This document shows positions 1 through 10,240 of a DNA stretch of 10,240 nucleotides, one piece after another (within the stretch, counting starts at the first letter, position 1; each line of letters begins with the position of its first letter). The notes below the pieces were generated by a model. That model was given only the letters and a program-made list of their open reading frames with translations, had not been told where the DNA came from and made no database searches. Origin of the DNA: a virus (Duplodnaviria; Heunggongvirae; Uroviricota; Caudoviricetes). Both the position numbers and the translations under genes were made by a program. The DNA lies in the IMG/VR virus record IMGVR_UViG_2529292726_000022, positions 1 through 10,240 of that record. The stretch is one strand, 5' to 3'.

Positions 1-1820
1 CCACCGAGATCCAGCGTCAGGCGCAGCAGTTTGTCAGAACCTTCGACAAACTCCGCGTTTTCAATCAGCGCCACACGCAGGTCAACTTTGGCGAAGTCGT
101 CAAAGGTGATGGTTTCCTGAATCGGGTCGTCAGCCAGTGGGCCAGTTACCGGTGCAGCTGTGGCTTTCACTTCTTCTTTGGATGCTTCCACCAGTGCTTC
201 CACCTGTTTCATATCGATACGGTTATACAGTGCCTTGAACGGATTCACTTTATGGCCCAGCAGCGGTTGCTGGATACCATCCCAGGTCAGTTCTGTATTC
301 AGGAATGCTTCTGCACGTTCAGTCAGTTTCGGCAGTACCGGTTTCAGGTACGTCATCAGCACGCGGAACAGGTTAATGCCCATAGAGCAAATCGCCTGCA
401 GATCGGCATCGCGTCCTTCCTGCTTCGCCACCACCCACGGAGCCTGTTCATCAACATAGCGGTTAGCCAGGTCAGCCAGTGCCATGATTTCACGGATAGC
501 TTTGCCAAATTCGCGGCTTTCCCATGCTTCGCCAATCACTTCAGCGGCATCAGTAAAGGTTTTGTACAGTTGCGGGTCAGCCAGTTCGCTTGCCAGCACG
601 CCGTCAAAACGCTTGTTGATAAAGCCTGCATTACGGGAGGCCAGGTTAACCACTTTGTTAACGATATCGGCATTCACACGCTGAACGAAATCTTCCAGAT
701 TGAGATCGATATCATCAATGCGCGAAGAGAGTTTCGCAGTGTAGTAGTAACGCAGGCTGTCGGCGTCAAAATGATTCAGCCAGGTGCTGGCTTTAATAAA
801 GGTGCCGCGAGACTTGGACATCTTCGCGCCGTTCACCGTCACATAGCCGTGAACAAACAGGTTGGTCGGCTTGCGGAAGTTGCTGCCTTCCAGCATGGCA
901 GGCCAGAACAGGCTGTGGAAGTAAACGATATCTTTGCCGATGAAGTGGTACAGCTCGGCGGTGGAGTCTTTCTTCCAGTAATCGTCGAAGCTGGTAGTGT
1001 CGCCGCGTTTGTCGCACAGATTCTTGAAAGAACCCATGTAGCCAATCGGCGCGTCCAGCCAGACGTAGAAGTATTTGCCCGGTGCGTTCGGAATTTCAAA
1101 ACCGAAGTAAGGTGCGTCACGGGAGATATCCCACTGTTGCAGGCCAGATTCAAACCACTCCTGCATTTTGTTTGCCACCTGCTCCTGCAACGCACCGCTG
1201 CGGGTCCATGCCTGCAACATTTCGCTGAAAGAAGGCAGATCAAAGAAGAAGTGTTCGGAATCACGCATTACCGGTGTAGCGCCAGAAACCACTGATTTCG
1301 GCTCGATCAGTTCCGTCGGGCTGTATGTCGCGCCGCAGACTTCACAGTTATCGCCGTATTGATCCGGCGCTTTACATTTCGGGCATGTGCCTTTTACAAA
1401 ACGGTCCGGCAGGAACATGCCTTTTTCCGGGTCGTACAGCTGAGAGATGGTGCGGTTTTTAATAAAACCGTTCTCTTTCAGGCGAGTATAGATAAGCTCG
1501 GACAACTGACGGTTCTCTTCGCTGTGCGTCGAGTGATAGTTGTCATAGCTGATGTTAAAGCCTGCGAAATCAGTCTGATGTTCCTGACTCATTTCGCCAA
1601 TCATCTGCTCCGGTGTGATACCAAGCTGCTGTGCTTTCAGCATGATCGGCGTACCGTGGGCATCGTCGGCACAGATGAAATTAACCTCGTGGCCGCGCAT
1701 TCGCTGGTAACGAACCCAGACATCAGCCTGGATGTGCTCCAGCATATGGCCGAGGTGGATTGAGCCGTTAGCGTACGGCAGCGCGCACGTCACCAGAATT
1801 TTCTTCGCGACTTGGGTCAT
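1..1820 (-). CDS. metG: Methionine--tRNA ligase (MetRS), partial: N-terminal ~606 codons in window, C-terminus beyond window start
   Basis: Minus-strand translation from ATG (complement of 1818-1820) reads [29 protein letters not shown]... with the class I aaRS HLGH motif (encoded ~1746-1757) and KMSKS (encoded 810-824). The frame stays open to position 1, so it is absent from the ORF track (no stop in window). Plus-strand ORFs 160-459, 252-1295, 484-684 are antisense shadows. Confidence 0.95.
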
Positions 1821-1977
1821 AGTAGGCATTACTTCTTTGTAGTGAAAAGGGGCTTGATAGTAACAAAATGGCCTTATGTCTGCCATGTGATAACAGCATT
1901 TCTCATAAATGATTAAATGTCGTAGCTGGAGTACACTACAAGGCGACAATTGCGCAAATTAAAATAAAGGAGACGGG
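1821..1977. promoter_or_regulatory. Divergent metG / mrp intergenic promoter region
   Basis: 157-bp AT-rich gap between divergently oriented starts; SD-like AAGGAG at 1967-1972, 5 nt before the mrp ATG (1978). Individual -10/-35 elements not resolved by eye. Confidence 0.5.
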
Positions 1978-3078
1978 ATGAGCGAGTCCAAATCGCCGGA
2001 TGCCCTGAGAGCAATGGTAGCCGGTACGCTGGCTAATTTTCAGCACCCAACCCTGAAACACAACCTGACTACGCTTAAAGCGTTACACCATGTTGCGTTG
2101 ATGGATGACACACTGCATGTCGAACTAATCATGCCTTTCGTGTGGAATAAGCCTTTTGAAGACCTGAAAGAGCAATGTAGTGGTGATCTGCTCCGTATCA
2201 CTGGCGCAAAGGCTATTGACTGGAAGCTGTCGTACAACATTGCCACGCTTAAGCGCGTCAAAAACCAACCAGGCATTAATGGCGTTAAGAACATTATCGC
2301 CGTCAGCTCAGGCAAGGGCGGCGTGGGTAAATCCTCCACGGCGGTAAACCTGGCACTGGCGTTGGCTGCTGAAGGTGCGAAAGTTGGTATTTTGGATGCC
2401 GATATCTATGGTCCATCAATTCCAACCATGCTGGGCGCGGAAAACCAACGTCCAACCTCACCTGACGGTACTCACATGGCACCTATCATGTCTCATGGCC
2501 TGGCAACCAACTCTATTGGTTATCTGGTCACCGACGACAATGCAATGGTGTGGCGTGGACCGATGGCCAGCAAGGCGCTGATGCAGATGTTGCAGGAAAC
2601 TCTATGGCCTGATCTGGACTATCTCGTTCTCGATATGCCGCCGGGCACTGGTGATATTCAGTTGACGCTGGCGCAGAACATTCCTGTAACTGGTGCGGTT
2701 GTGGTAACTACGCCGCAAGACATCGCGCTGATCGATGCGAAGAAAGGCATTGTGATGTTCGAAAAAGTCGAAGTGCCGGTACTGGGTATCGTCGAAAACA
2801 TGAGTGTGCATATTTGCAGTAACTGCGGTCATCACGAGCCAATTTTTGGCACCGGTGGCGCACAGAAACTGGCCGAGAAATACAACACGCAGTTGTTAGG
2901 CCAAATGCCACTTCATATCTCTCTTCGTGAAGATCTGGATAACGGAACACCAACCGTTATTAGTCGTCCAGATAGCGAATTTACAGCTATTTATCGTGAC
3001 CTCGCAGATCGCGTTGCTGCCCAAATGTATTGGCAAGGTGAAGTAATACCTGGCGAAATCGCATTCCGCGCAGTGTGA
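1978..3078 (+). CDS. apbC: Fe-S cluster carrier ATPase Mrp/ApbC (NBP35 family)
   Basis: 366-aa ORF with SD; deviant Walker A SSGKGGVGKSST, CxxC motif (CSNCGH), and the MSESKSPDALRAMVAGTLANFQHP... N-terminus typical of enterobacterial Mrp; conserved divergent arrangement with metG. Confidence 0.95.
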   Translation: MSESKSPDALRAMVAGTLANFQHPTLKHNLTTLKALHHVALMDDTLHVELIMPFVWNKPFEDLKEQCSGDLLRITGAKAIDWKLSYNIATLKRVKNQPGINGVKNIIAVSSGKGGVGKSSTAVNLALALAAEGAKVGILDADIYGPSIPTMLGAENQRPTSPDGTHMAPIMSHGLATNSIGYLVTDDNAMVWRGPMASKALMQMLQETLWPDLDYLVLDMPPGTGDIQLTLAQNIPVTGAVVVTTPQDIALIDAKKGIVMFEKVEVPVLGIVENMSVHICSNCGHHEPIFGTGGAQKLAEKYNTQLLGQMPLHISLREDLDNGTPTVISRPDSEFTAIYRDLADRVAAQMYWQGEVIPGEIAFRAV

Positions 3079-3083
3079 TAAAA

Positions 3084-3104
3084 AGGCGGTGCATTGCACC
3101 GCCT
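3084..3104. terminator. GC-rich hairpin (aggcggtgc-att-gcaccgcct) between convergent mrp and UmuD'-like gene
   Basis: 9-bp perfect stem, 3-nt loop. On the minus strand it is followed by TTTTTAT (complement of 3077-3083), a good intrinsic terminator for the minus-strand gene ending at 3116. On the plus strand it is preceded by AAAA but lacks a U-tract. Confidence 0.6.
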
Positions 3105-3115
3105 AATCAGTTCTC

Positions 3116-3505
3116 CTACATCACGGGACAATCATCAAACTCGCCACTTCTTGCGTCGTTGATAATGTGAGTGATCACACCAAACACGGCATTGCTGCCC
3201 GTGCATGCATCGTCATCCTTTGGCAATGCTTCCTTCTTACCGGTTCTTAAATCCTCCAGATGCTGACGTGGGTACTTCCGGTATCTTTTTACGCGATATT
3301 CCCCATCCAGAGCGCATACAAGCAGAGAACCATCAACCGGGGTAAGTGAGGAATCGACCACCAGCAATGCACCCTGTAATATTCCCTCACGATGATGACT
3401 ATCAGCTGCCCTCATGAAGTAGGTCGCTGAAGGATGTCTAATTATCTGCTGATCAAGAGAAATACGGCTCTCAGCATAATCCGCCGCAGGAGAAGGGAAG
3501 CCCAT
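3116..3505 (-). CDS. UmuD-family S24 peptidase, natively N-terminally truncated (UmuD'-like), 129 aa
   Basis: Starts MGFPSPAADYAESRISLDQQIIRHPSATYF..., co-linear with UmuD from the residue after its Cys24-Gly25 self-cleavage site. Ser of the Ser-Lys dyad retained (AADSH vs UmuD SGDSM), Lys retained (VKRYR vs VKKLQ). In-frame TAA 12 nt upstream of the ATG (complement of 3518-3520) rules out an N-terminal extension. SD AAGAGG precedes ATG. No umuC-like gene follows. Confidence 0.8.
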   Translation of the reverse strand: MGFPSPAADYAESRISLDQQIIRHPSATYFMRAADSHHREGILQGALLVVDSSLTPVDGSLLVCALDGEYRVKRYRKYPRQHLEDLRTGKKEALPKDDDACTGSNAVFGVITHIINDARSGEFDDCPVM

Positions 3506-3521
3506 AATACTCGCCTCTTAA

Positions 3522-3541
3522 CACTGTATATACATACAGTA
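3522..3541 (-). promoter_or_regulatory. LexA operator (SOS box)
   Basis: Minus-strand TACTGTATGTATATACAGTG: CTGT-N8-ACAG palindrome matching the consensus TACTGTATATATATACAGTA at 17/20, about 16 nt upstream of the UmuD'-like start codon, the same geometry as the E. coli umuDC operator. Confidence 0.8.
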
Positions 3542-3566
3542 TATGTTGAAGCTATATATTTTTGAA
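3538..3566 (-). promoter_or_regulatory. Putative sigma70 promoter of the UmuD'-like gene, overlapped by the LexA box
   Basis: Minus-strand -35 TTCAAA (complement of 3561-3566), 17-nt spacer, -10 TATACT (complement of 3538-3543); the -10 overlaps the upstream half of the LexA box. Confidence 0.5.
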
Positions 3567-3725
3567 CTCTATCTCTTAAAAAAGATGTTAATAAGATGCT
3601 AACTATTGAAAGGCATAAATATATACAATTCCAACAAACGTTATTTTTAACAAATTTTTTCTCTCCGTTGACTTTTGCGAAAGCCTTGTCTGGCCTAAAT
3701 TGCGCGGAAGCTACTTTTTCCTTAC

Positions 3726-3750
3726 AGAGTTATCCACAGAGTTATGCACT
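3726..3750 (+). repeat. Tandem 12-bp repeat containing DnaA-box-like 9-mers
   Basis: agagTTATCCAC / agagTTATGCAC in direct tandem (3726-3737, 3738-3749). TTATCCACA at 3730-3738 is a perfect DnaA box consensus; TTATGCACT at 3742-3750 matches TTATNCACA at 8/9. Confidence 0.3.
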
Positions 3751-3836
3751 TGCATGTATAACCTATACACACTATCTTAATTCGCAAGACACTGATGTTG
3801 CGGTATTGAAGGTTCATTGGGTTAAAAATAGACATT

Positions 3837-3867
3837 AAAAAGCCCAGTTGACTAGGCTGGGCTTTTT
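3837..3867. terminator. Bidirectional intrinsic terminator hairpin
   Basis: AAAAAGCCCAG-(9-nt loop)-CTGGGCTTTTT: 11-bp perfect inverted repeat with an A-tract 5' and T-tract 3', so it is U-tract-flanked on both strands. No confident CDS ends at it on either strand. Confidence 0.65.
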
Positions 3868-3900
3868 AAAAGGAAACAGAGTTTGCGGCTCTGTTCCTGA

Positions 3901-3920
3901 GCCATAAGTATCTGGCGACT
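3901..3920 (+). repeat. Direct repeat copy 1 (gccaTAAGTATCTGGCGACT)
   Basis: 20-bp sequence repeated at 4074-4093 with one mismatch (16-bp identical core TAAGTATCTGGCGACT at 3905-3920 and 4078-4093). Confidence 0.7.
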
Positions 3921-4073
3921 GAATTAAGATTAACCGAATGTACTGGATTCATCAAGAAACGTTGAGTGGTCATACCAGGTAATAATGACCATTTACTAAA
4001 CATCGTTGTTCTCAAAGAAGATTTAAGTCCAGGTTTTTGGTGACTCTAAAACCTTACCTTAACTCGAAATCGT

Positions 4074-4093
4074 GCCGTAAGTATCTGGCGACT
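4074..4093 (+). repeat. Direct repeat copy 2 (gccgTAAGTATCTGGCGACT)
   Basis: Second copy, 173 bp downstream of copy 1; preceded by AAATCGTGCCG (4066-4076), which recurs inside the small ORF at 4189-4199. Confidence 0.7.
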
Positions 4094-4167
4094 ACAGATA
4101 TTGCAACTGCAAAGGCAAGCCCAAAGGTATTTGCAGCTAGGCGCGATAAAACTAAGTGAGGCCTGTT

Positions 4168-4251
4168 ATGGTTAACTTACTGTTCAAAATCGTGCCGCCG
4201 ATGTTCGCGATTATCAAAGCGATCATTGAGTACGTAAACCAGCGTCCATAA
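4168..4251 (+). CDS. Candidate small hydrophobic protein, 27 aa (MVNLLFKIVPPMFAIIKAIIEYVNQRP)
   Basis: ATG at 4168 preceded by SD-like GTGAGG with 6-nt spacing; stop TAA 4249-4251; terminator hairpin 14 nt downstream. Peptide is mostly hydrophobic with a charged C-terminal tail. Too short for the ORF track. Confidence 0.3.
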   Translation: MVNLLFKIVPPMFAIIKAIIEYVNQRP

Positions 4252-4264
4252 CGCTAGTTGCTAC

Positions 4265-4297
4265 AGGCCCCATCAAGAGCATGGGGCCTCTTTATCG
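4265..4297 (+). terminator. Hairpin (aggcccca-N9-tggggcct) plus CTTTAT tract downstream of small ORF
   Basis: 8-bp GC-rich perfect stem followed by a short T-rich tract on the plus strand. On the minus strand it sits 18 nt past the stop of the operon's last gene (4307) but has no U-tract in that direction. Confidence 0.5.
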
Positions 4298-4306
4298 TAC
4301 TATTGC

Positions 4307-4933
4307 TTATTTTTTACGGACTGAGTTGTTCACTGCTCTGGCAATCTTCTCCCGCAATTGCTGCGTTCCGTGGTACTGAACCGCAATATCTCTCAACTCG
4401 TTCACCAGTTCTCGAATCTGGTGATCTTTAAGCTCATTATTTGGGTGATTGGTAACAACTCTGGTTAATTCACCCTTGTCTTTTGCTCTTACGTATGCAG
4501 CTCTTGTGCATTCGACCCATGTATTACCGCCTACATTAACTTCGTAGATTAGGCTGGACTTATCTGTCAATTCGGAACAAATACGGGCCGTGGTCTGGCA
4601 ACTAGAGCATTCGCAGTTATCGCGGAAACCGTGATCTACCGGTCGAGAAAGAGGTTTAACTTTTTCATCCAACTTCATCACAGCATCGTGATAAGCGTTC
4701 CAGCCGTCATCTTTACCAAGTTGATAAATCTCTGAAGGCTCCATGTAGTCTATATCGCAACCTTCTTCATCCGATCTATCTGGTCGCTTCCCTGGTAATC
4801 GCTCATAAAAACGATTTCTGTCTCGACGTTCGGCTCTCAGTGCTAACGCAAGAAGTTGCTCAAGCGAGGTATTTGCACCAGCAATAATTTCATTGAGAAT
4901 ATCTTCTGTGAGATCTTTCGCTACCGTGCTCAT
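4307..4933 (-). CDS. Hypothetical protein, 208 aa (last gene of operon)
   Basis: Long minus-strand ORF; ATG (complement 4931-4933) overlaps the stop of the upstream gene (ATGA); contains a Cys cluster (CECSSCQ). No recognisable family by eye. Confidence 0.7.
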   Translation of the reverse strand: MSTVAKDLTEDILNEIIAGANTSLEQLLALALRAERRDRNRFYERLPGKRPDRSDEEGCDIDYMEPSEIYQLGKDDGWNAYHDAVMKLDEKVKPLSRPVDHGFRDNCECSSCQTTARICSELTDKSSLIYEVNVGGNTWVECTRAAYVRAKDKGELTRVVTNHPNNELKDHQIRELVNELRDIAVQYHGTQQLREKIARAVNNSVRKK

Positions 4934-5313
4934 TTATCTCTCTCAGTATGTTGCGATGGCGTAAATTTGACGACATCAAATATTTTGGATGGCATCAACT
5001 TTATCCGCGAGCTTAGTTCGGCTCTTCTCTGTAATGCGGTTAATAATGTTTTCGTTCTGACGCCTTCGTGTATCCTCATCCCTGGCACAAGAACTACATC
5101 GCAGGGGAGATGCTCAGGTGACAAATCATTTTGGGCATCGCTAATCAGTCGTGTAATCTCTCTTTCAAGCCGACCGCCTAGCTCTGTTTTAGTGCAATGT
5201 TCTGACCAATCGCCAGCCTCAAGCAGCGCGAGAATGCTTAAAATATCGTCCAATAGATCAGTGGTATTATCGACTTCCTTCTGAAGCTCACCGGCTACTG
5301 ATTTATGCATCAT
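4930..5313 (-). CDS. Hypothetical protein, 127 aa
   Basis: Minus-strand ORF starting ATGATG (MMHKS...), start overlaps stop of upstream gene (ATGA at 5310-5313). Confidence 0.7.
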   Translation of the reverse strand: MMHKSVAGELQKEVDNTTDLLDDILSILALLEAGDWSEHCTKTELGGRLEREITRLISDAQNDLSPEHLPCDVVLVPGMRIHEGVRTKTLLTALQRRAELSSRIKLMPSKIFDVVKFTPSQHTERDK

Positions 5314-5963
5314 TCGTCATCCTCATCCGAGTCATCCTCATCACAGGATGAGAGTAGTGGGTTAGTCATTCGCCCTACTTGAGTGGCATAGCCACGCCGA
5401 CAGAGATTGCGCAGCACACTGTATATTTCGAACATCTCGGTTCGTTCATCGCCAACATCAAGCTCAGATGCTATAGCGTGGCATTCAGTCGCGAGAGCCG
5501 ATATTTTCTGAAATAACTCTGCATTATTCACTGTTCGACTCCTGCGGCGTTCTGGTAGTGGCATCCAGTGTGTGGCATTGCTAATCAGACCATATTCATT
5601 AGTTTGAGGATGGTTGCCGTTATCGTCTCCGTATTTAAGACTCTCCATAAAGCCATAATGCCTATCACCATTAACGCTCACAAAGCCGTAATAAGCAGGT
5701 ATAACGCCGATCTCACACATAACCAGTAACGGAAAACTAGTTCTCCAATTTAGCTCGCCAATTACAGGCATTCGCTCACTACAGCTTATCCAACCATCCT
5801 TAGATGCGGCTGTATTGGCATAGGCCTTACGGTGCTTCTGTAGCTCTGCTGCAATCGCTCTCACGACTTCAACTGGTGCCCTTGCAGCAAACTCAATGTT
5901 GGTGATCAGCTCATTAAGATATTTCTCGCTTGGGTAGCATTTCTTATTGTTAACGGTGGTCAT
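5310..5963 (-). CDS. Hypothetical phage-type protein, possible DUF551-like domain, acidic C-terminal tail, 217 aa
   Basis: Minus-strand ORF; motifs DGWISCSERMPV ... ATHWMPLPE resemble the W-I-S-x-x-x-R-(L/M)-P ... HWMPLP signature I associate with prophage DUF551 proteins (memory-based). Ends in DEDDSDEDDE. Start ATG overlaps upstream stop (TAATG). Confidence 0.7.
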   Translation of the reverse strand: MTTVNNKKCYPSEKYLNELITNIEFAARAPVEVVRAIAAELQKHRKAYANTAASKDGWISCSERMPVIGELNWRTSFPLLVMCEIGVIPAYYGFVSVNGDRHYGFMESLKYGDDNGNHPQTNEYGLISNATHWMPLPERRRSRTVNNAELFQKISALATECHAIASELDVGDERTEMFEIYSVLRNLCRRGYATQVGRMTNPLLSSCDEDDSDEDDE

Positions 5964-6148
5964 TAGGCAGCTCTCTCAACAACAAGCAATTCGTCGTAGT
6001 CATAATCAGTTTCGGAACCATCCGTACCGAACAGAGTCACTTTGTCATTTTCCATCCAAAAAGATTTAACCGCACATTGTTGACCTTTAGATGTTATGAG
6101 CACATCACCAGGGATTACGTCTTCAGCGCGAACCTCTAGTGTTCTCAT
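5963..6148 (-). CDS. Hypothetical small protein, 61 aa (MRTLEVRAEDVIPGDVL...)
   Basis: The ORF track starts at a TTG (6184) inside the upstream gene; the ATG at complement 6146-6148 has a strong SD (AAAGAGGG) about 7 nt upstream and lies 4 nt after the upstream TAG, so is preferred. Confidence 0.6.
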   Translation of the reverse strand: MRTLEVRAEDVIPGDVLITSKGQQCAVKSFWMENDKVTLFGTDGSETDYDYDELLVVERAA

Positions 6149-6152
6149 CGTG

Positions 6153-6566
6153 CTAACCCTCTTTGGTGAAAACGCCTGATGCAATACTGTTTATGATGCT
6201 GTCAGTACAGGGAGTAGAAAGCTGGGCATCTCCAGCTATTTTCATGACTTCGACATCCGCATATCGAATACCGAGGTGTATCAGACCTGCTATACCTGAC
6301 TTAAGTCGAACATTTTCCATAAACAGATCCTTTTCCCGCTGTTTAACGGTCTCCAGCTCAACACGCAACTTCTCAATTTCGGCAGCCATGTAGTAACCAA
6401 CCATAGCGAATACGGCAAAAGAGTTGTCTGCCTCATCAGGCGACACTGAGGCCATTAGCAGACCATCGTAATAATCGTGACTCCCATTGGTGATCGCCAC
6501 CGCATAGGAGTCGTGGTTCTCACGCTTGTGAATGAGAACTACGGGGTTTTCGATTTTGTTACTCAT
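6153..6566 (-). CDS. Hypothetical protein, 137 aa
   Basis: Minus-strand ORF with ATG at complement 6564-6566, preceded by AAGAGAAAAACAC; central charged segment (EIEKLRVELETVKQREKDLFMENVRLK) suggests a helical/coiled region. Confidence 0.7.
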   Translation of the reverse strand: MSNKIENPVVLIHKRENHDSYAVAITNGSHDYYDGLLMASVSPDEADNSFAVFAMVGYYMAAEIEKLRVELETVKQREKDLFMENVRLKSGIAGLIHLGIRYADVEVMKIAGDAQLSTPCTDSIINSIASGVFTKEG

Positions 6567-6704
6567 GTGTTTTTCTCTTCTTTGCTGTTACATAAGCACT
6601 ACCAAGTGCTGGTTTATTTTCACAAATAAGAAAAGGTAGAAAACAATTTATTTAAGGCCACAACTTATGGCCTTTATTTATTCATGCCGAAGGATTTGTA
6701 GCGT

Positions 6705-7085
6705 CTAATTGCCGGATAAAATGGGGTGAGGTGCTTGCCAGTAGGCTCCACCGGTCCATGTGAACCCCATGCGAATAAGAGGGTTTATTGCGGCTTTGGT
6801 AGACTCCGATTCGACACTGGCTTTTCGAAACTCTTGAACCTCTTTCGCCAACCTGTATGTAATTGTGCAGGGGACGATTGCAGCCCAGCCTTTCTCATGA
6901 CTGTTAATGACCATCTGGATGTGACCATCCAGAATAGGTTGATTAGGCATGTTATTGAAAACGTCTGCCTGTTTTTGAATGTGAATAAAAAGCCTTGCCA
7001 GCTCCATTTGCTCACTACGAGACAAGGGATTATCAAGAGGGCTTTTTGCAAAAGCGGCTATACGCTGTGCGTCAATGCCAAACAT
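6705..7085 (-). CDS. Hypothetical protein, 126 aa
   Basis: Minus-strand ORF; ATG overlaps the stop of the upstream gene by 1 nt (TGATG at 7083-7087). Confidence 0.7.
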   Translation of the reverse strand: MFGIDAQRIAAFAKSPLDNPLSRSEQMELARLFIHIQKQADVFNNMPNQPILDGHIQMVINSHEKGWAAIVPCTITYRLAKEVQEFRKASVESESTKAAINPLIRMGFTWTGGAYWQAPHPILSGN

Positions 7086-7789
7086 CAGCGCACCTCACCA
7101 TCTTTATGGCTGGAGTTAACTTCCGCCATTAAATGTCTGACGTAATCGACAAGAGAGCCACCTGGTGGAATCTGGCATTCCTCAACTAACTGGAAGTAGA
7201 TATCCGCTGCATTACGTGTATTGCTACCCGCACATATTCTTTCTTCCCGAAGTGCATGAAGCTCGTTGATCAAACGGTCACACTCTCCGTTACGCTGATC
7301 CACAACGGCCTCAAGCTCTGCGACGCGTTCACCTGGCGTCTTACCTTCTTTGCGTTGGATGGTAACGACGAAATCGCCAATTGCAGGGACGTTGTAATCC
7401 AGCTCAAGGTAGTTTTTGGCACCGCTGCGGACGAACTCACCCGCGAACATGGTGGCGAACATCGCAGAGGCCACTTCGCCGTTGAAAAGTGACTCAAGAT
7501 CTAACGGAGTCCCGGCAGCAAGAGCCTCTTTTGCTGTATCCATTGCATCCATGAACCGATCAAACTCACTAGCGCGCTTTTCCATGTCTTTCCATTGCTC
7601 GCTCCAACGTTTGGCAACGAAGTCTATGAATGTTTTCGCGGATTCATCAAAATTCCCCTCAAACTTAACGATGCCTTTATCAATAATAATCTGGCCTACC
7701 GCATCCTCTGCATAACCTTTCAATGTAAACTTGAAAGGAAAATCAGAATGGCCTGTGACGTTAAAATGCTCTAACTGGAGGTTGTTCAT
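7085..7789 (-). CDS. Hypothetical protein, 234 aa
   Basis: Minus-strand ORF with ATG at complement 7787-7789, preceded by the same AAGAGAAAAACAC initiation region as the 6153-6566 gene. Confidence 0.7.
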   Translation of the reverse strand: MNNLQLEHFNVTGHSDFPFKFTLKGYAEDAVGQIIIDKGIVKFEGNFDESAKTFIDFVAKRWSEQWKDMEKRASEFDRFMDAMDTAKEALAAGTPLDLESLFNGEVASAMFATMFAGEFVRSGAKNYLELDYNVPAIGDFVVTIQRKEGKTPGERVAELEAVVDQRNGECDRLINELHALREERICAGSNTRNAADIYFQLVEECQIPPGGSLVDYVRHLMAEVNSSHKDGEVR

Positions 7790-7850
7790 GTGTTTTTCTC
7801 TTATCGTTTAGTTACTACATTCTTACACAAATTAAGTAAGTATTTACCTA

Positions 7851-9536
7851 TCATTTAACGCGTTTGAAAACGTATACGCTGACTGTGATCCCGGTATCTT
7901 CAAACTCGTTGGTAAACGACTTCCCTCTGGCATAAACGTAATTATCCATCGTCATCCAGTCCAGTATTGGCGCAGTGCCCGGCAATACTGCTACAAGACG
8001 CCCGCCGACTTTCAGATGCCCCAGCGCAGCCAGCGTGTGCTCTCTATGACGACCAAGCGAGTACGGCGGGTTCATAACGATTTTGTCGAACTGATAACCT
8101 GCGTTGTCCTCAGACCACTTTATGAAGTCGCAGCAAATCGTGTTCGTATACCCTTTTCCACGCAGGATATCAGCGAAGAGAGGTGCGATTTCTATGCAGG
8201 TAACATCTTCCAGATCGGCGTTAATATAGGCCAGAAGATCCCCACGTCCGGCTTGAGGCTCCAGCAGCTTCTCACCAGGCTTCAATTCAGTGGCTCTGGC
8301 AACGTACTCAGCAATCAAGCGTGGGGTAGGGTAGAACTGGTGTGATTTTGTATCCGGTATTAAACCGGTAGCCACAATCGTATTTAGCGTATGGCCGATG
8401 TCATACGGGAACTGCCAGTGCTTTTTCTCCTGCACGCCGCCAATGAAGCTCAGTGTGCGCTCAAGCTCTTCCACCTGCGACTTCTGGAGAGCTGAATCAG
8501 AGAAGTACCATACGCCTTTGTCTTTGCTCAATCGCCCGTCACGAAGCGCAGTGCGAACCGGCACGGAGATCGTCTTCTGGATTAACCCGAACTGCTTTGG
8601 TGCCCGTGTTTTTGGCGCAGTTCGGCATGGCGCGGGAATTGCAGCAGGCATACTGTAAGCCAGCACCTCATTCAACTTCCAGGCCACGTCAGGATGTATT
8701 TCAAAGTGAACGTTGCCGTTCTTGAACATCTTCACGCGCATCAGATTTCCATCGACGTTCATCCAGTCACCGGTCTGGCAGTCGTTTGCCCGATACGCAG
8801 CTGATAGCACCTCAGCAGTGCGGTTGATGGTAATAAATTCTTTGTGCGCGAAGAAATGAAGCAAGACACGCAGATCGTCGATGTAGTCCTCTTTGCGATA
8901 GTTCACGCTAACGCTGTCCCGCCAGAAATCAGAAATGCAGTCAGCGATTATCAGACGCTCGCTGAAACCGTTTGTCTTATTTGTCTTGTGCGCAGGACTC
9001 AGCGCCTTAAACAAGCCATACACGCGCTCAGAGAGATATTTGTGCCTGTCATTCAGCAAATTAAGCATCGTGGGTATGACCGTTTCTGCTTTGAACTCCG
9101 GTACACCAACGAACTCTTTAACCTTCATCTGGTAGCCGGTTCTGTCAGTTTTGATGACTTCCTGTTTGCCCTCTATAAACTGCTCGCGCCACTCATCTCG
9201 ACGGGAAGCTGGCATGATCAGCAAAACGTTAGTCATGTCCGTGACCTTCCTCCAGTACTCGGCCCAAATATTCTGTTTCACCCATTCCAGATCGACTTTA
9301 TCCAACCAACCTCGATTTAAACGCGAGCGATCTTCATCTGGTCGATGGTTTAGTCTCAGCAGGCGATTAATCATGTTGTGGCGTTCGTCGCCATAAACGA
9401 AGTCGTGTACCTGATACATGAAGGCGATCTCTTTCTCGCACTCGGCCACGATTTCGTGGATGACATTCATTTCCTGACGATAGTCGATAGCCGTGTTTGA
9501 GCTGGCATCGTCGCTGATGGAAAGGGCTGTATTCAT
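7851..9536 (-). CDS. 561-aa protein: ~380-aa N-terminal region of unknown function plus C-terminal gamma-class N6-adenine (amino) methyltransferase domain
   Basis: Motif order FYPTP (motif X-like), LEPQAGRGD (motif I; EPQAGRGD encoded 8238-8261), ~55 aa, then MNPPY (motif IV, encoded 8061-8072), typical of gamma-class amino-MTases. Only ~70 aa follow NPPY, so no obvious C-terminal target-recognition domain. First gene of the operon. Confidence 0.8.
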   Translation of the reverse strand: MNTALSISDDASSNTAIDYRQEMNVIHEIVAECEKEIAFMYQVHDFVYGDERHNMINRLLRLNHRPDEDRSRLNRGWLDKVDLEWVKQNIWAEYWRKVTDMTNVLLIMPASRRDEWREQFIEGKQEVIKTDRTGYQMKVKEFVGVPEFKAETVIPTMLNLLNDRHKYLSERVYGLFKALSPAHKTNKTNGFSERLIIADCISDFWRDSVSVNYRKEDYIDDLRVLLHFFAHKEFITINRTAEVLSAAYRANDCQTGDWMNVDGNLMRVKMFKNGNVHFEIHPDVAWKLNEVLAYSMPAAIPAPCRTAPKTRAPKQFGLIQKTISVPVRTALRDGRLSKDKGVWYFSDSALQKSQVEELERTLSFIGGVQEKKHWQFPYDIGHTLNTIVATGLIPDTKSHQFYPTPRLIAEYVARATELKPGEKLLEPQAGRGDLLAYINADLEDVTCIEIAPLFADILRGKGYTNTICCDFIKWSEDNAGYQFDKIVMNPPYSLGRHREHTLAALGHLKVGGRLVAVLPGTAPILDWMTMDNYVYARGKSFTNEFEDTGITVSVYVFKRVK

Positions 9537-9577
9537 AATTACACCATTAAATAATTTGTTTTCTGATTGGTGTAATT
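9537..9577. promoter_or_regulatory. Perfect 9-bp inverted repeat abutting the methyltransferase start codon
   Basis: AATTACACC-N23-GGTGTAATT (9537-9545 / 9569-9577) directly adjacent to the ATG at 9536, so on the mRNA it covers the ribosome-binding region. Candidate operator or 5'-UTR stem-loop. Confidence 0.4.
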
Positions 9578-9633
9578 ATCGCAAACTTGAAAAGGCATAA
9601 AAGCTGCATTCATAGGCGTTACAGCAGATTTAA

Positions 9634-9660
9634 GGCGTAAAAATGGGGGCTGTCGCCCCC
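9634..9660 (-). terminator. Intrinsic terminator of the small gene 9678-9914
   Basis: Minus-strand GGGGGC-GACA-GCCCCC hairpin (9645-9660) followed by ATTTTTAC, 18 nt past the stop codon. Confidence 0.6.
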
Positions 9661-9677
9661 TGTCGACTGGTGCTGTA

Positions 9678-9914
9678 TTAGAGTGCGTATTGCGTTTTGT
9701 GCGGCTGCTTATTCAAGTCATGGCGATGCGTGAGCTCCCGCATCATGTCTTCAAGGCGACTCTTTGTGTCGTCGAGCTGGTCGGCCATTGCACCTAAAAG
9801 CTGGCGAACGGCCATCGGATCGTCGCTGTTTAGTGATGGCATTTTAGAACCTGCTTTAGAAGACATAAGGTTGATTGCAGACATCAACATCGTTAGAGAG
9901 GTATTAGACGTCAA
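9678..9914 (-). CDS. Hypothetical small protein (up to 78 aa; true start uncertain)
   Basis: Minus-strand ORF with its own terminator. The track start is a TTG; internal ATGs (MLMSAINL..., MPSLNSDD...) are alternative starts. The 5' end abuts the presumed IS21-family terminus, so it may be the 3' remnant of a disrupted gene. Confidence 0.45.
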   Translation of the reverse strand: MTSNTSLTMLMSAINLMSSKAGSKMPSLNSDDPMAVRQLLGAMADQLDDTKSRLEDMMRELTHRHDLNKQPHKTQYAL

Positions 9915-9918
9915 CTAG

Positions 9919-10240
9919 TTTTGCCGACTCGCGCCAACTATACTGGCCGCACCCTTCAGTGCGACATCAAGTCGCGCTTGTTACTGCCTTCGCTGTCTTT
10001 TTCCTGTAGCTTTCACCTTTCAGTTCGAACATATATCCGTGATGGATCAGCCGGTCTGCCGCCGCCACCGCCATAGTCTCATCCACGAAGATGCTGCCCC
10101 ACATGCTGAACGGATGGTTACTGGTTATCACCAGGCTCCCACGTTCATAGCGATGCGCTATTAACTCGAACAGTACTCCCGTTTCGGCGCTGTCGCGTTT
10201 GACATAGCCAAGATCATCCACCACTATCACCCGGTAGCGA
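9919..10240 (-). mobile_element. IS21-family insertion sequence, istB-proximal end (partial; exact terminus not determined)
   Basis: Inferred from the istB fragment; the terminal inverted repeat should lie in about 9919-9966, downstream of the istB stop, but I could not identify it by eye. Confidence 0.55.
9967..10240 (-). CDS. istB: IS21-family transposition helper ATPase IstB, C-terminal part (5' end beyond window)
   Basis: ...IVVDDLGYVKRD...LFELIAHRYERGSLVITSNHPFSMWGSIFVDETMAVAAADRLIHHGYMFELKGESYRKK... matches the IstB Walker B-to-C-terminus signature (D-D/E-L-G-Y, RYE, TSN, DRLxHH, ELKGESYR). The track's M at 10230 is internal. Confidence 0.9.
   Translation of the reverse strand, partial: RYRVIVVDDLGYVKRDSAETGVLFELIAHRYERGSLVITSNHPFSMWGSIFVDETMAVAAADRLIHHGYMFELKGESYRKKTAKAVTSAT

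Follow-up and report, generated by a model that had tools for sequence, protein, structure and literature searches.

What is encoded in the 800-bp unannotated gap that separates humD from the last gene of a minus-strand gene string in the Caudoviricetes record IMGVR_UViG_2529292726_000022? The stretch analyzed here (the window) comprises positions 1 to 10,240 of that record, 10,240 nucleotides (nt) in all. The initial annotation, made from the sequence alone, had noticed in this gap a 27-codon hydrophobic open reading frame (ORF) on the plus strand (4168-4251), had listed its Shine-Dalgarno (SD) sequence GTGAGG and a terminator, and had read it as a small membrane protein or type I toxin-like gene with possible antisense control. 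ORF, SD and terminator were all present as described. We consider it likely that the ORF and a divergent small RNA (sRNA) of ~85 nt together form a self-contained type I toxin-antitoxin (TA)-like cassette of ~470 bp (3835-4297).

The ORF, a candidate type I toxin or small membrane peptide gene, starts with ATG at 4168, ends with TAA at 4249-4251 and encodes MVNLLFKIVPPMFAIIKAIIEYVNQRP. The GAGG of its SD (4156-4161, GUGAGG in the transcript) ends 6 nt 5' of the ATG. Downstream, an intrinsic terminator of the peptide mRNA was predicted on the plus strand (4265-4297); its hairpin (4265-4289; nine pairs, six of them G-C) begins 13 nt past the stop codon and is followed by CTTTATCG. As had been observed initially, this terminator has no U-tract in the minus-strand direction, where the sequence reads GTAGCAACTAG. 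A G+C-rich hairpin and a T-run occur at the same place 3' of the ORF in every homologue, with differing sequences.

Homologous modules were searched with a conserved hairpin of the 5' untranslated region (UTR) as the handle, using the pattern CTGCAAAGG-N11-GTNTTTGCAG, which added modules on IMG/VR contigs and in genomes of Citrobacter and Kluyvera. In genome contigs 3 of the 54 pattern matches carried the module (Citrobacter sp. NCU1, Kluyvera georgiana and the contig JAEWTL010000044.1); the rest were chance matches and were reused as negative controls (10 loci for the covariance model described below). The promoter comparison covered 18 aligned modules, the RNAalifold analysis 17 sRNA sequences, the mRNA fold 13 homologues, and the pairing analysis 13 seed/target combinations.

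The window-type ORF was recovered in 16 distinct DNA variants (13 of 27 codons and 3 of 25-26 codons) on elements of Escherichia, Citrobacter, Enterobacter and Kluyvera, and a paralogous peptide type (MFLLLLKLAHPVAVIIMTLLEYWKDR) in five variants. The initial annotation had staked the ORF on conservation of its frame among homologues; neither a frame-breaking indel nor an internal stop was present in any of the 16 window-type or the 5 paralogous variants. In the 13 full-length variants (27 codons), variable columns were distributed 14/6/23 over codon positions 1, 2 and 3, and the mean ratio of non-synonymous to synonymous differences per site (pN/pS) was 0.27. Relative to the window copy, the ratio of non-synonymous to synonymous substitution rates (dN/dS) ranged from 0.04 to 0.46, and synonymous divergence went up to pS = 0.74 without disruption of the frame. 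The SD and the start codon were conserved (in the pECOH89 clade GTG takes the place of ATG at an unchanged position), and the two alternative frames were stop-ridden. The 27-codon ORF is under purifying selection and conserved as coding. That it should be a chance open frame within a conserved non-coding RNA region is extremely improbable: short ORFs are indeed common here (11 of at least 20 amino acids overlap positions 4000-4450) and the 5' UTR, too, shows high conservation at the RNA level, but such a frame would hardly combine this codon periodicity with an intact frame at high synonymous divergence, a retained SD and start, and alternative frames full of stops.

The reading as a hydrophobic small protein held up as well. 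In the Kyte-Doolittle analysis, the best 19-residue window of the peptide scored 1.85 (1.85-2.3 across the family), above the usual threshold of 1.6 for a transmembrane segment; the grand average of hydropathy (GRAVY) was 0.86, and the C-terminus (EYVNQRP) is polar. These values are compatible with a single membrane helix, and both size and hydropathy fall within the range of known type I toxins. The peptide had not been recognized as a known E. coli small protein, in agreement with our searches: it had no match in Pfam, NCBIfam or PADLOC at E ≤ 10 (six family members for NCBIfam and Pfam), nothing significant in PHROGs (the sole match concerned one homologue, E = 0.16), and in an exact look-up in large protein collections it appeared only as unnamed or "hypothetical" entries. 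A 31-residue GTG-start form, searched against 1.84 billion representatives, retrieved only itself and one 56-residue fusion call.

In some modules (L004 1641-1831, L005 1652-1846, L013 and L023) tandem paralogous peptide ORFs lie behind one 5' UTR and one sRNA target. Such a pair consists of a MQMLLLFLKLAHPVAVIIMTLLGYWKDR type and a MVSLLLKILPPLVAIITTIIDYINKR type, and other modules retain just one of them.

Is the peptide gene under antisense control, and by what? The initial annotation had pointed to read-through from the convergent eight-gene operon, which would be antisense to the ORF. This arrangement is not a conserved feature and cannot be general because the downstream gene differs among homologous modules and is sometimes co-directional. 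The conserved candidate regulator is a divergent sRNA gene ~250 bp upstream, outside the interval covered by the initial annotation, and it is predicted to pair with the 5' UTR and not with the ORF. The proposal of a type I-like membrane peptide under antisense control is strongly supported by the coding conservation, the lack of a match to known families and the presence of a dedicated antisense partner, while the identification of that partner with operon read-through had to be given up.

The candidate antitoxin sRNA is encoded on the minus strand (3920 to 3835), with its predicted 5' end at A3920 and its 3' end in the T-run of a terminator. Its putative promoter (3927-3955, minus strand) consists of a -35 element TTGATG (3955 to 3950), a 17-nt spacer and a -10 element TAATCT (3932 to 3927), which places the predicted start 7 nt downstream of the -10. 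A simple consensus promoter scan did not list this promoter because the -10 matches the consensus at only 3 of 6 positions. Across the aligned modules, nevertheless, the -35 TTGA and positions T1, A2 and T6 of the -10 were invariant, and the spacing was conserved. From the 5' end the transcript would comprise a seed (3901-3920, AGUCGCCAGAUACUUAUGGC), a stem-loop (3872-3897, GGAACAGAG...CUCUGUUUCC) and an intrinsic terminator (3835-3869, TTAAAAAGCCCAG...CTGGGCTTTTTAA), which is a perfect 13-nt inverted repeat, was called as a terminator and is bidirectional. This terminator is expected to end the sRNA and would also stop plus-strand transcripts arriving from upstream.

The RNAalifold consensus had the same layout, a 5' tail, the stem-loop and the terminator, with compensatory changes at five pairs. 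In the stem-loop, column pair 25/49 was UA in 11 sequences, GU in 3 and AU in 3, and column pair 30/44 occurred as AU, UA, GC and GU; two pairs of the terminator stem covaried (GC to AU). A covariance model of the 17 homologues found exactly one sRNA copy per module-bearing locus (79-107 bits) and none in the 10 unrelated control loci. In Rfam, the window sRNA scored only below threshold (27.6 bits for AgrB, whose gathering score is 40, and 23 for RNAI, whose gathering score is 47); with the homologues included, the maxima were 34 bits for OrzO-P (gathering score 60) and 32 for RNAI. The stem-loop and the terminator account for these sub-threshold scores. Taken from the sequence signals, both the sRNA and the peptide mRNA are probably transcribed.

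The link between the two genes is a 20-nt direct repeat. Copy 1 (3901-3920) is the sRNA seed and copy 2 (4074-4093) the putative target in the mRNA; the two are identical at 19 of 20 positions, the lone difference giving a G·U pair, and the repeat occurs twice in the window against 0.00 expected occurrences (200 shuffles). Over the 13 distinct sRNA/target combinations, 96.5% of the cells were paired when the two copies were read as an intermolecular helix, compared to 27-34% in slid-register controls. Double-sided changes were present at 10 of the 24 intermolecular pairs, and none of 500 column shuffles reached the observed values. Six seed types were distinguished, and in each of them the change was present in both copies: ...TAAGTATCTGGCGACT in the window clade, ...AATGTATCTGGCGACT in most other modules, ..GGCAGC in two Citrobacter elements, and ..TATCCGG(C/T)GACT, ...TAAAACACTGGCGAC and ..GGCTAC in one module each. 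Seed and target co-vary, and this is the strongest result of our analysis. A shuffle-controlled RNAduplex prediction of the full-length sRNA against the mRNA was uninformative (z = -1.2) because unconstrained folding invents long interactions.

The few cells in which the two copies differ carry additional information. Within positions 2-20, all 12 unequal cells changed from A to G or from C to T going from copy 1 to copy 2, and no A·C combination occurred. Such differences yield G·U wobbles in one orientation alone, with the minus strand of copy 1 as the sRNA and the plus strand of copy 2 as the mRNA. This bears on a different explanation, in which the 20-24-bp repeats are sites for a DNA-binding protein (operators or iteron-like elements) that co-evolve with that protein, in which case the "sRNA" would have no function in antisense regulation. 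Both copies are direct and change together, as protein sites would, a consensus DnaA box is often nearby, and a palindrome specific to the window (3967-3991) lies between the repeats. However, co-evolution with a protein does not predict residual differences that run one way and keep G·U. Moreover, the first base of copy 1 is exactly the start predicted from a conserved promoter, with covarying RNA stems and a terminator downstream, while copy 2 lies in an RNA hairpin whose other arm covaries. The G·U asymmetry together with the RNA covariation around both copies argues against protein-binding sites, an explanation that we regard as very unlikely, and we retain the sRNA-mRNA pairing.

How would such pairing act on the peptide mRNA? 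The promoter of this mRNA was not found by the consensus scan, and a position weight matrix scan gave only weak hexamers that are positionally conserved across clades. In the window the candidate promoter (3992-4022, plus strand) is formed by TTTACT (3992-3997) and GAAGAT (4017-4022), and the transcript would start near 4029. Between the two divergent promoters, the window clade, and only this clade, has the palindrome TGGTCAT-N11-ATGACCA (3967-3991), which could be an operator or a hairpin.

The consensus mRNA fold had double-sided changes at 11 pairs and begins with a 5'-terminal hairpin (4029-4055, CCAGGUUUU...AAAACCUU) in which three pairs showed such changes (AU/GC, UA/CG). It is followed by a C/A-rich linker (4055-4069) predicted to be single-stranded, with a mean unpaired probability of 0.71 in the window and ~0.9 in other clades; the comparison with tisB (PMC7708055) makes it a candidate region for ribosome standby. 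A closing helix (4070-4076 with 4140-4146) then encloses a domain of two hairpins. The first of these (4080-4102) contains the sRNA target, 75-94 nt upstream of the AUG, which forms its 5' arm and loop. The loop GCGACUA (4088-4094) had an unpaired probability of ~1 and is complementary to the extreme 5' end of the sRNA, and changes in the target are matched by changes in the 3' arm (GUAUC/GAUAC is replaced by CACUG/CAGUG in L007). The second is the conserved hairpin used as the search handle (4107-4136, CUGCAAA...UUUGCAG). Further downstream, the SD is predicted to pair with CUUACU (4176-4181, codons 3-5 of the ORF), with an unpaired probability of 0.03. Opening the ribosome binding site (RBS, taken as the SD through codon 2) would cost 10.1 kcal/mol, the second highest value among the 10 window genes (range 0.6-13.5). 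According to the folding model, the RBS sequestration is real but not extreme.

One way in which pairing could close the RBS was considered and rejected as a general mechanism, namely a structural switch in which GGCGCGAU (4140-4147), released on sRNA binding, would clamp onto the copy of the AAAUCGUGCC repeat within the ORF. When the target was held unpaired, the RBS opening cost shifted by only -0.4 to +1.4 kcal/mol in the 13 homologues, and in most clades the ORF copy of this repeat reads AUCGUACC; both results count against the switch. The mRNA also contains a second direct repeat, TC(G/A)AAATCGTGCCG, at 4064-4077 and 4184-4197. In the consensus fold its 5' copy pairs with GGCGCGA (4140-4146), its ORF copy encodes K-I-V-P, and in most clades the sRNA duplex reaches into the 5' copy. 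This repeat may be a remnant of the duplication that made the sRNA/target pair.

In most clades other than that of the window, an AUG inside the sRNA target (AAUGUAUCUGG) opens a leader ORF, MYLATTD..., which ends at the toxin SD (L004 1551-1631), is cut short (L005) or continues in frame into the toxin ORF (L011 / P0005, the 56-residue gene call). In the window clade (4079-4159) AAG replaces the leader AUG, and the leader is also absent in L007. As it is not conserved across clades, the leader ORF was set aside as part of the mechanism in the window, although it could provide mok-like coupling in some lineages.

A leader ORF that starts inside the sRNA target in some clades, DnaA boxes upstream and the Rfam RNAI scores (23-32 bits, below the gathering score of 47) would also suit an antisense-RNA copy-number control of the RNAI/CopA or Inc-RNA kind, with the ORF as a leader peptide coupled to a replication gene. 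Yet a terminator follows 13 nt past the ORF, beyond which lie unrelated, often convergent genes, and a replication gene was downstream in none of the contexts. The peptide sequence is under purifying selection, unlike typical leader peptides, and the leader ORF itself is not conserved, since the window clade and L007 lack it and L005 has a truncated form. We give copy-number control very little credence and return to the TA-like reading.

According to our model, a strong and probably constitutive promoter would supply the sRNA in excess, while a weak promoter would give rise to an mRNA of ~270 nt with, in this order, the 5' hairpin, the C/A-rich single strand, the target hairpin, the second hairpin, the sequestered SD and the ORF. 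The unstructured 5' end of the sRNA (AGUCGCC...) would nucleate on the exposed loop of the target hairpin (GGCGACU), from where pairing could zip into a duplex of 20-24 bp, 75-94 nt 5' of the AUG and next to the single-stranded linker. This duplex would block translation, most likely by occluding the standby site and/or by creating an RNase III substrate, so that the structured RBS would never be loaded; the route of repression is proposed by analogy with tisB/istR-1 and zorO/orzO, for which it has been shown. Once made, the product would be a single-pass membrane peptide that is presumably harmful, and its most likely role on a phage-plasmid would be addiction (post-segregational killing) or defence. 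We infer the toxicity and the role from the layout, from the carriage by mobile elements and from the movement of the cassette as a unit between unrelated flanks.

Several points weigh against this model. Both the peptide and the sRNA scored below the threshold of every known type I family, so that homology gives no functional support. The candidate promoter of the peptide mRNA is weak and places the start only approximately, and the RBS sequestration is only moderately unusual among the window genes. In the pairing analysis, the number of independent events is small (~4-5 wobbles and ~5 seed switches), related sequences can inflate the shuffle statistics, and gene conversion can also keep two direct repeats identical.

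Where is the cassette found? The window region is 100% identical to the E. coli plasmid pCUVET20-PYO4.2 (112 kb) and 99% identical to Cyrano/pLF82, an SSU5-like phage-plasmid; the host element of the cassette is an SSU5-like phage-plasmid. Among 5,426 complete E. coli genomes, 115 carried the module at 116 places, 106 of them on plasmids (typically ~110 kb), and at none of the 116 places did an annotated feature lie under the match. No related DNA and no similar chromosomal locus were found by blastn (E ≤ 0.01) in the other ~5,300 complete E. coli genomes. Against plasmids, blastn returned highly similar as well as diverged copies (68-84% identity) in Citrobacter and Enterobacter plasmids, where the neighbouring genes differ and small ORFs of the same family are present. 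In PLSDB the module occurred in Escherichia, Shigella, Citrobacter, Klebsiella, Enterobacter and Kosakonia, and Kluyvera also carries it; the carriers are SSU5-like and other phage-plasmids, and prophages. The contig JAEWTL010000044.1 (L083), binned as a "Bacillota bacterium" metagenome-assembled genome, contains a window-clade module with enterobacterial flanks (~89% identity) and is probably a mis-binned Enterobacteriaceae plasmid contig. On either side of the cassette the flanks are unrelated between clades and the annotated neighbours vary: the cassette moves as a unit, among plasmid and prophage settings that are unrelated to one another. No earlier description of the locus was found in the literature, although such a search cannot prove absence; the paper on Cyrano/pLF82 lists as toxins only KacT, RelE and HicAB, i.e. 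protein toxins.

Is the peptide a toxin at all? It might be a genuine sRNA-regulated small membrane protein that modulates a transporter, a sensor or a phage function, and the cassette a regulated accessory gene. Non-toxic small membrane proteins under sRNA control exist, the conserved ORF and the supported sRNA pairing would suit such a protein too, and among known type I toxins the hydropathy of the peptide (best window 1.85, GRAVY 0.86) would rank low. Against this reading, the cassette is autonomous and shifts among unrelated plasmid and prophage contexts, and some modules carry tandem paralogous peptides, as seen in duplicated toxin loci. We consider a non-toxic function unlikely and prefer the interpretation as a TA-like cassette.

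The divergent trans-sRNA class of type I systems had hitherto been regarded as restricted to the chromosomes of enterobacteria, and we know of no other such family on mobile elements. The module would add another family to the small class of type I TA systems with a divergent antitoxin and only a short seed, which are hard to predict. Its host range (Escherichia, Shigella, Citrobacter, Enterobacter, Klebsiella, Kluyvera and Kosakonia) is wider than that of the known families, which bears on why type I systems seem poorly mobile (PMC5367252). The natural seed variants offer a ready series for the study of sRNA-target specificity and of standby-site control. We tentatively suggest that the diversification of seed and target has produced at least six specificities that mismatch one another, by which co-resident or competing phage-plasmids carry orthogonal addiction or exclusion modules, that is, an RNA-encoded incompatibility code; this is a speculative possibility. 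The carrier plasmids are known vehicles of resistance genes, and an addiction function, if true, would matter for the persistence of resistance-carrying plasmids.

Some features of the surrounding DNA were recorded alongside. The gap is bordered by humD (3116-3505, minus strand) and by the terminal gene of the minus-strand string (4307-4933, minus strand); tRNA and tmRNA genes were sought in it and not found. Just upstream of humD lies an apbC/Mrp-like gene (1978-3078), and the DNA from 1 to 3078 also contains a full metG (methionyl-tRNA synthetase), running past the window start. A perfect LexA box, CTGTATATACATACAG (3524-3539), is the sole CTG-N10-CAG in 3400-4320; it lies beyond the bidirectional terminator, between humD and a divergent plus-strand promoter-like site (3518-3547), and belongs to humD. 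As judged from this box, humD and possibly also a plus-strand transcript ending at the 3835-3869 terminator would be under SOS control. Between the LexA box and the terminator there is an unannotated ORF of 80 amino acids (3596-3838, plus strand; recorded together with 3568-3754), and part of this stretch is 86% identical to a P1/P7 region annotated as upf91.4-91.7 in P7. A consensus DnaA box, TTATCCACA (3730-3738), lies inside a 12-nt tandem repeat (3724-3747). The same box was found 30-130 nt beyond the sRNA terminator in 8 of 18 modules, i.e. in the window and in 7 of the 17 homologues (L026, L027, L028, L037, L014, L034 and L083), whose flanks are otherwise unrelated.

How does the module compare with known type I systems? 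In general terms it has two traits of the class, a small (<60 residues), hydrophobic and conserved peptide and, in silico, an RNA with extended complementarity. The Fst/Ldr superfamily shares with it an N-terminal transmembrane helix with an invariant Pro, behind which come an aromatic residue and a short tail with charged residues. In that superfamily a conserved Trp separating helix and charged C-terminus is part of the signature (PMC7472228). The paralogous type, which ends in ...LLEYWKDR, has this Trp between helix and charged tail, while the window type has Val (EYVNQRP), like Fst of pAD1. However, the PXXXG motif is absent (PPMFA or HPVAV, with no Gly at +4), the Pfam Fst and Ldr models gave no match, and hhalign against LdrD yielded a probability of 9% over 20 columns. 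Rdl is a cis-antisense RNA and par RNA II is convergent, whereas the sRNA here is divergent. Judged by sequence, the resemblance to Fst/Ldr is faint.

With hok/sok the module has in common the carriage by plasmids and phages, an antisense-controlled membrane peptide, and an mRNA that is structured and sequesters its SD; a leader ORF that overlaps the sRNA target, as mok does, is a further parallel in some clades. Yet Hok has ~50 residues compared to 27 here, and no HOK_GEF match was found in Pfam. Sok is encoded in cis and overlaps mok, while the sRNA here is encoded in trans, does not overlap the mRNA and matches it over 20-24 nt, and the leader ORF is not conserved.

The architecture is that of zorO-orzO, tisB-istR-1, shoB-ohsC and dinQ-agrB, with a divergent, non-overlapping sRNA and a short pairing far 5' of the RBS. 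Like the module, dinQ-agrB combines a 27-residue peptide with a divergent sRNA that pairs with the 5' UTR, and AgrB (RF02891) gave the best Rfam score of the window sRNA (E = 0.055, the gathering score not being reached). The alignment to AgrB, however, consists mostly of the stem-loop and terminator, the LexA box is absent here, and the peptides are dissimilar. The likeness to tisB-istR-1 lies in the divergent layout, the pairing of the sRNA 5' end ~100 nt upstream of a sequestered RBS, and the 5' structure with an upstream single-stranded stretch; standby translation of tisB requires such a single-stranded region ~100 nt upstream together with a 5' structure (PMC7708055). In contrast to tisB, which is under LexA control, no LexA box (CTG-N10-CAG) was present in the mRNA promoter region of the window and of 9 homologous modules; a TisB or IstR family match was likewise not obtained, and a tisA-like leader is not conserved here.

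In zorO-orzO, the small hydrophobic peptide (29 residues, compared to 27 here) is also translated from an mRNA with a long structured 5' UTR, and the 5' end of an sRNA encoded divergently upstream pairs with ~18-20 nt of it. The 5' UTR of zorO comprises ~180 nt, and its complementarity to the divergent sRNA lies 72-92 nt before the start codon (PMC2887945), compared to 75-94 nt in the module. Differences concern the sequences and the location: the best OrzO-P (RF02083) score, 34.2 bits in L004, stayed below the gathering score of 60 and the window sRNA had no match; homology of the peptides was not found with NCBIfam/Pfam (E ≤ 10, six members) or blastn (E ≤ 0.01); and zorO lies on the chromosome and occurs only in E. 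coli and Shigella, while the module is carried by phage-plasmids and prophages of several genera. By analogy, the module thus appears to resemble tisB/istR-1, zorO/orzO, shoB/ohsC and dinQ/agrB in its working and belongs to none of them; it is best described as a mobile, previously unassigned family of type I TA-like modules of the divergent trans-sRNA class.

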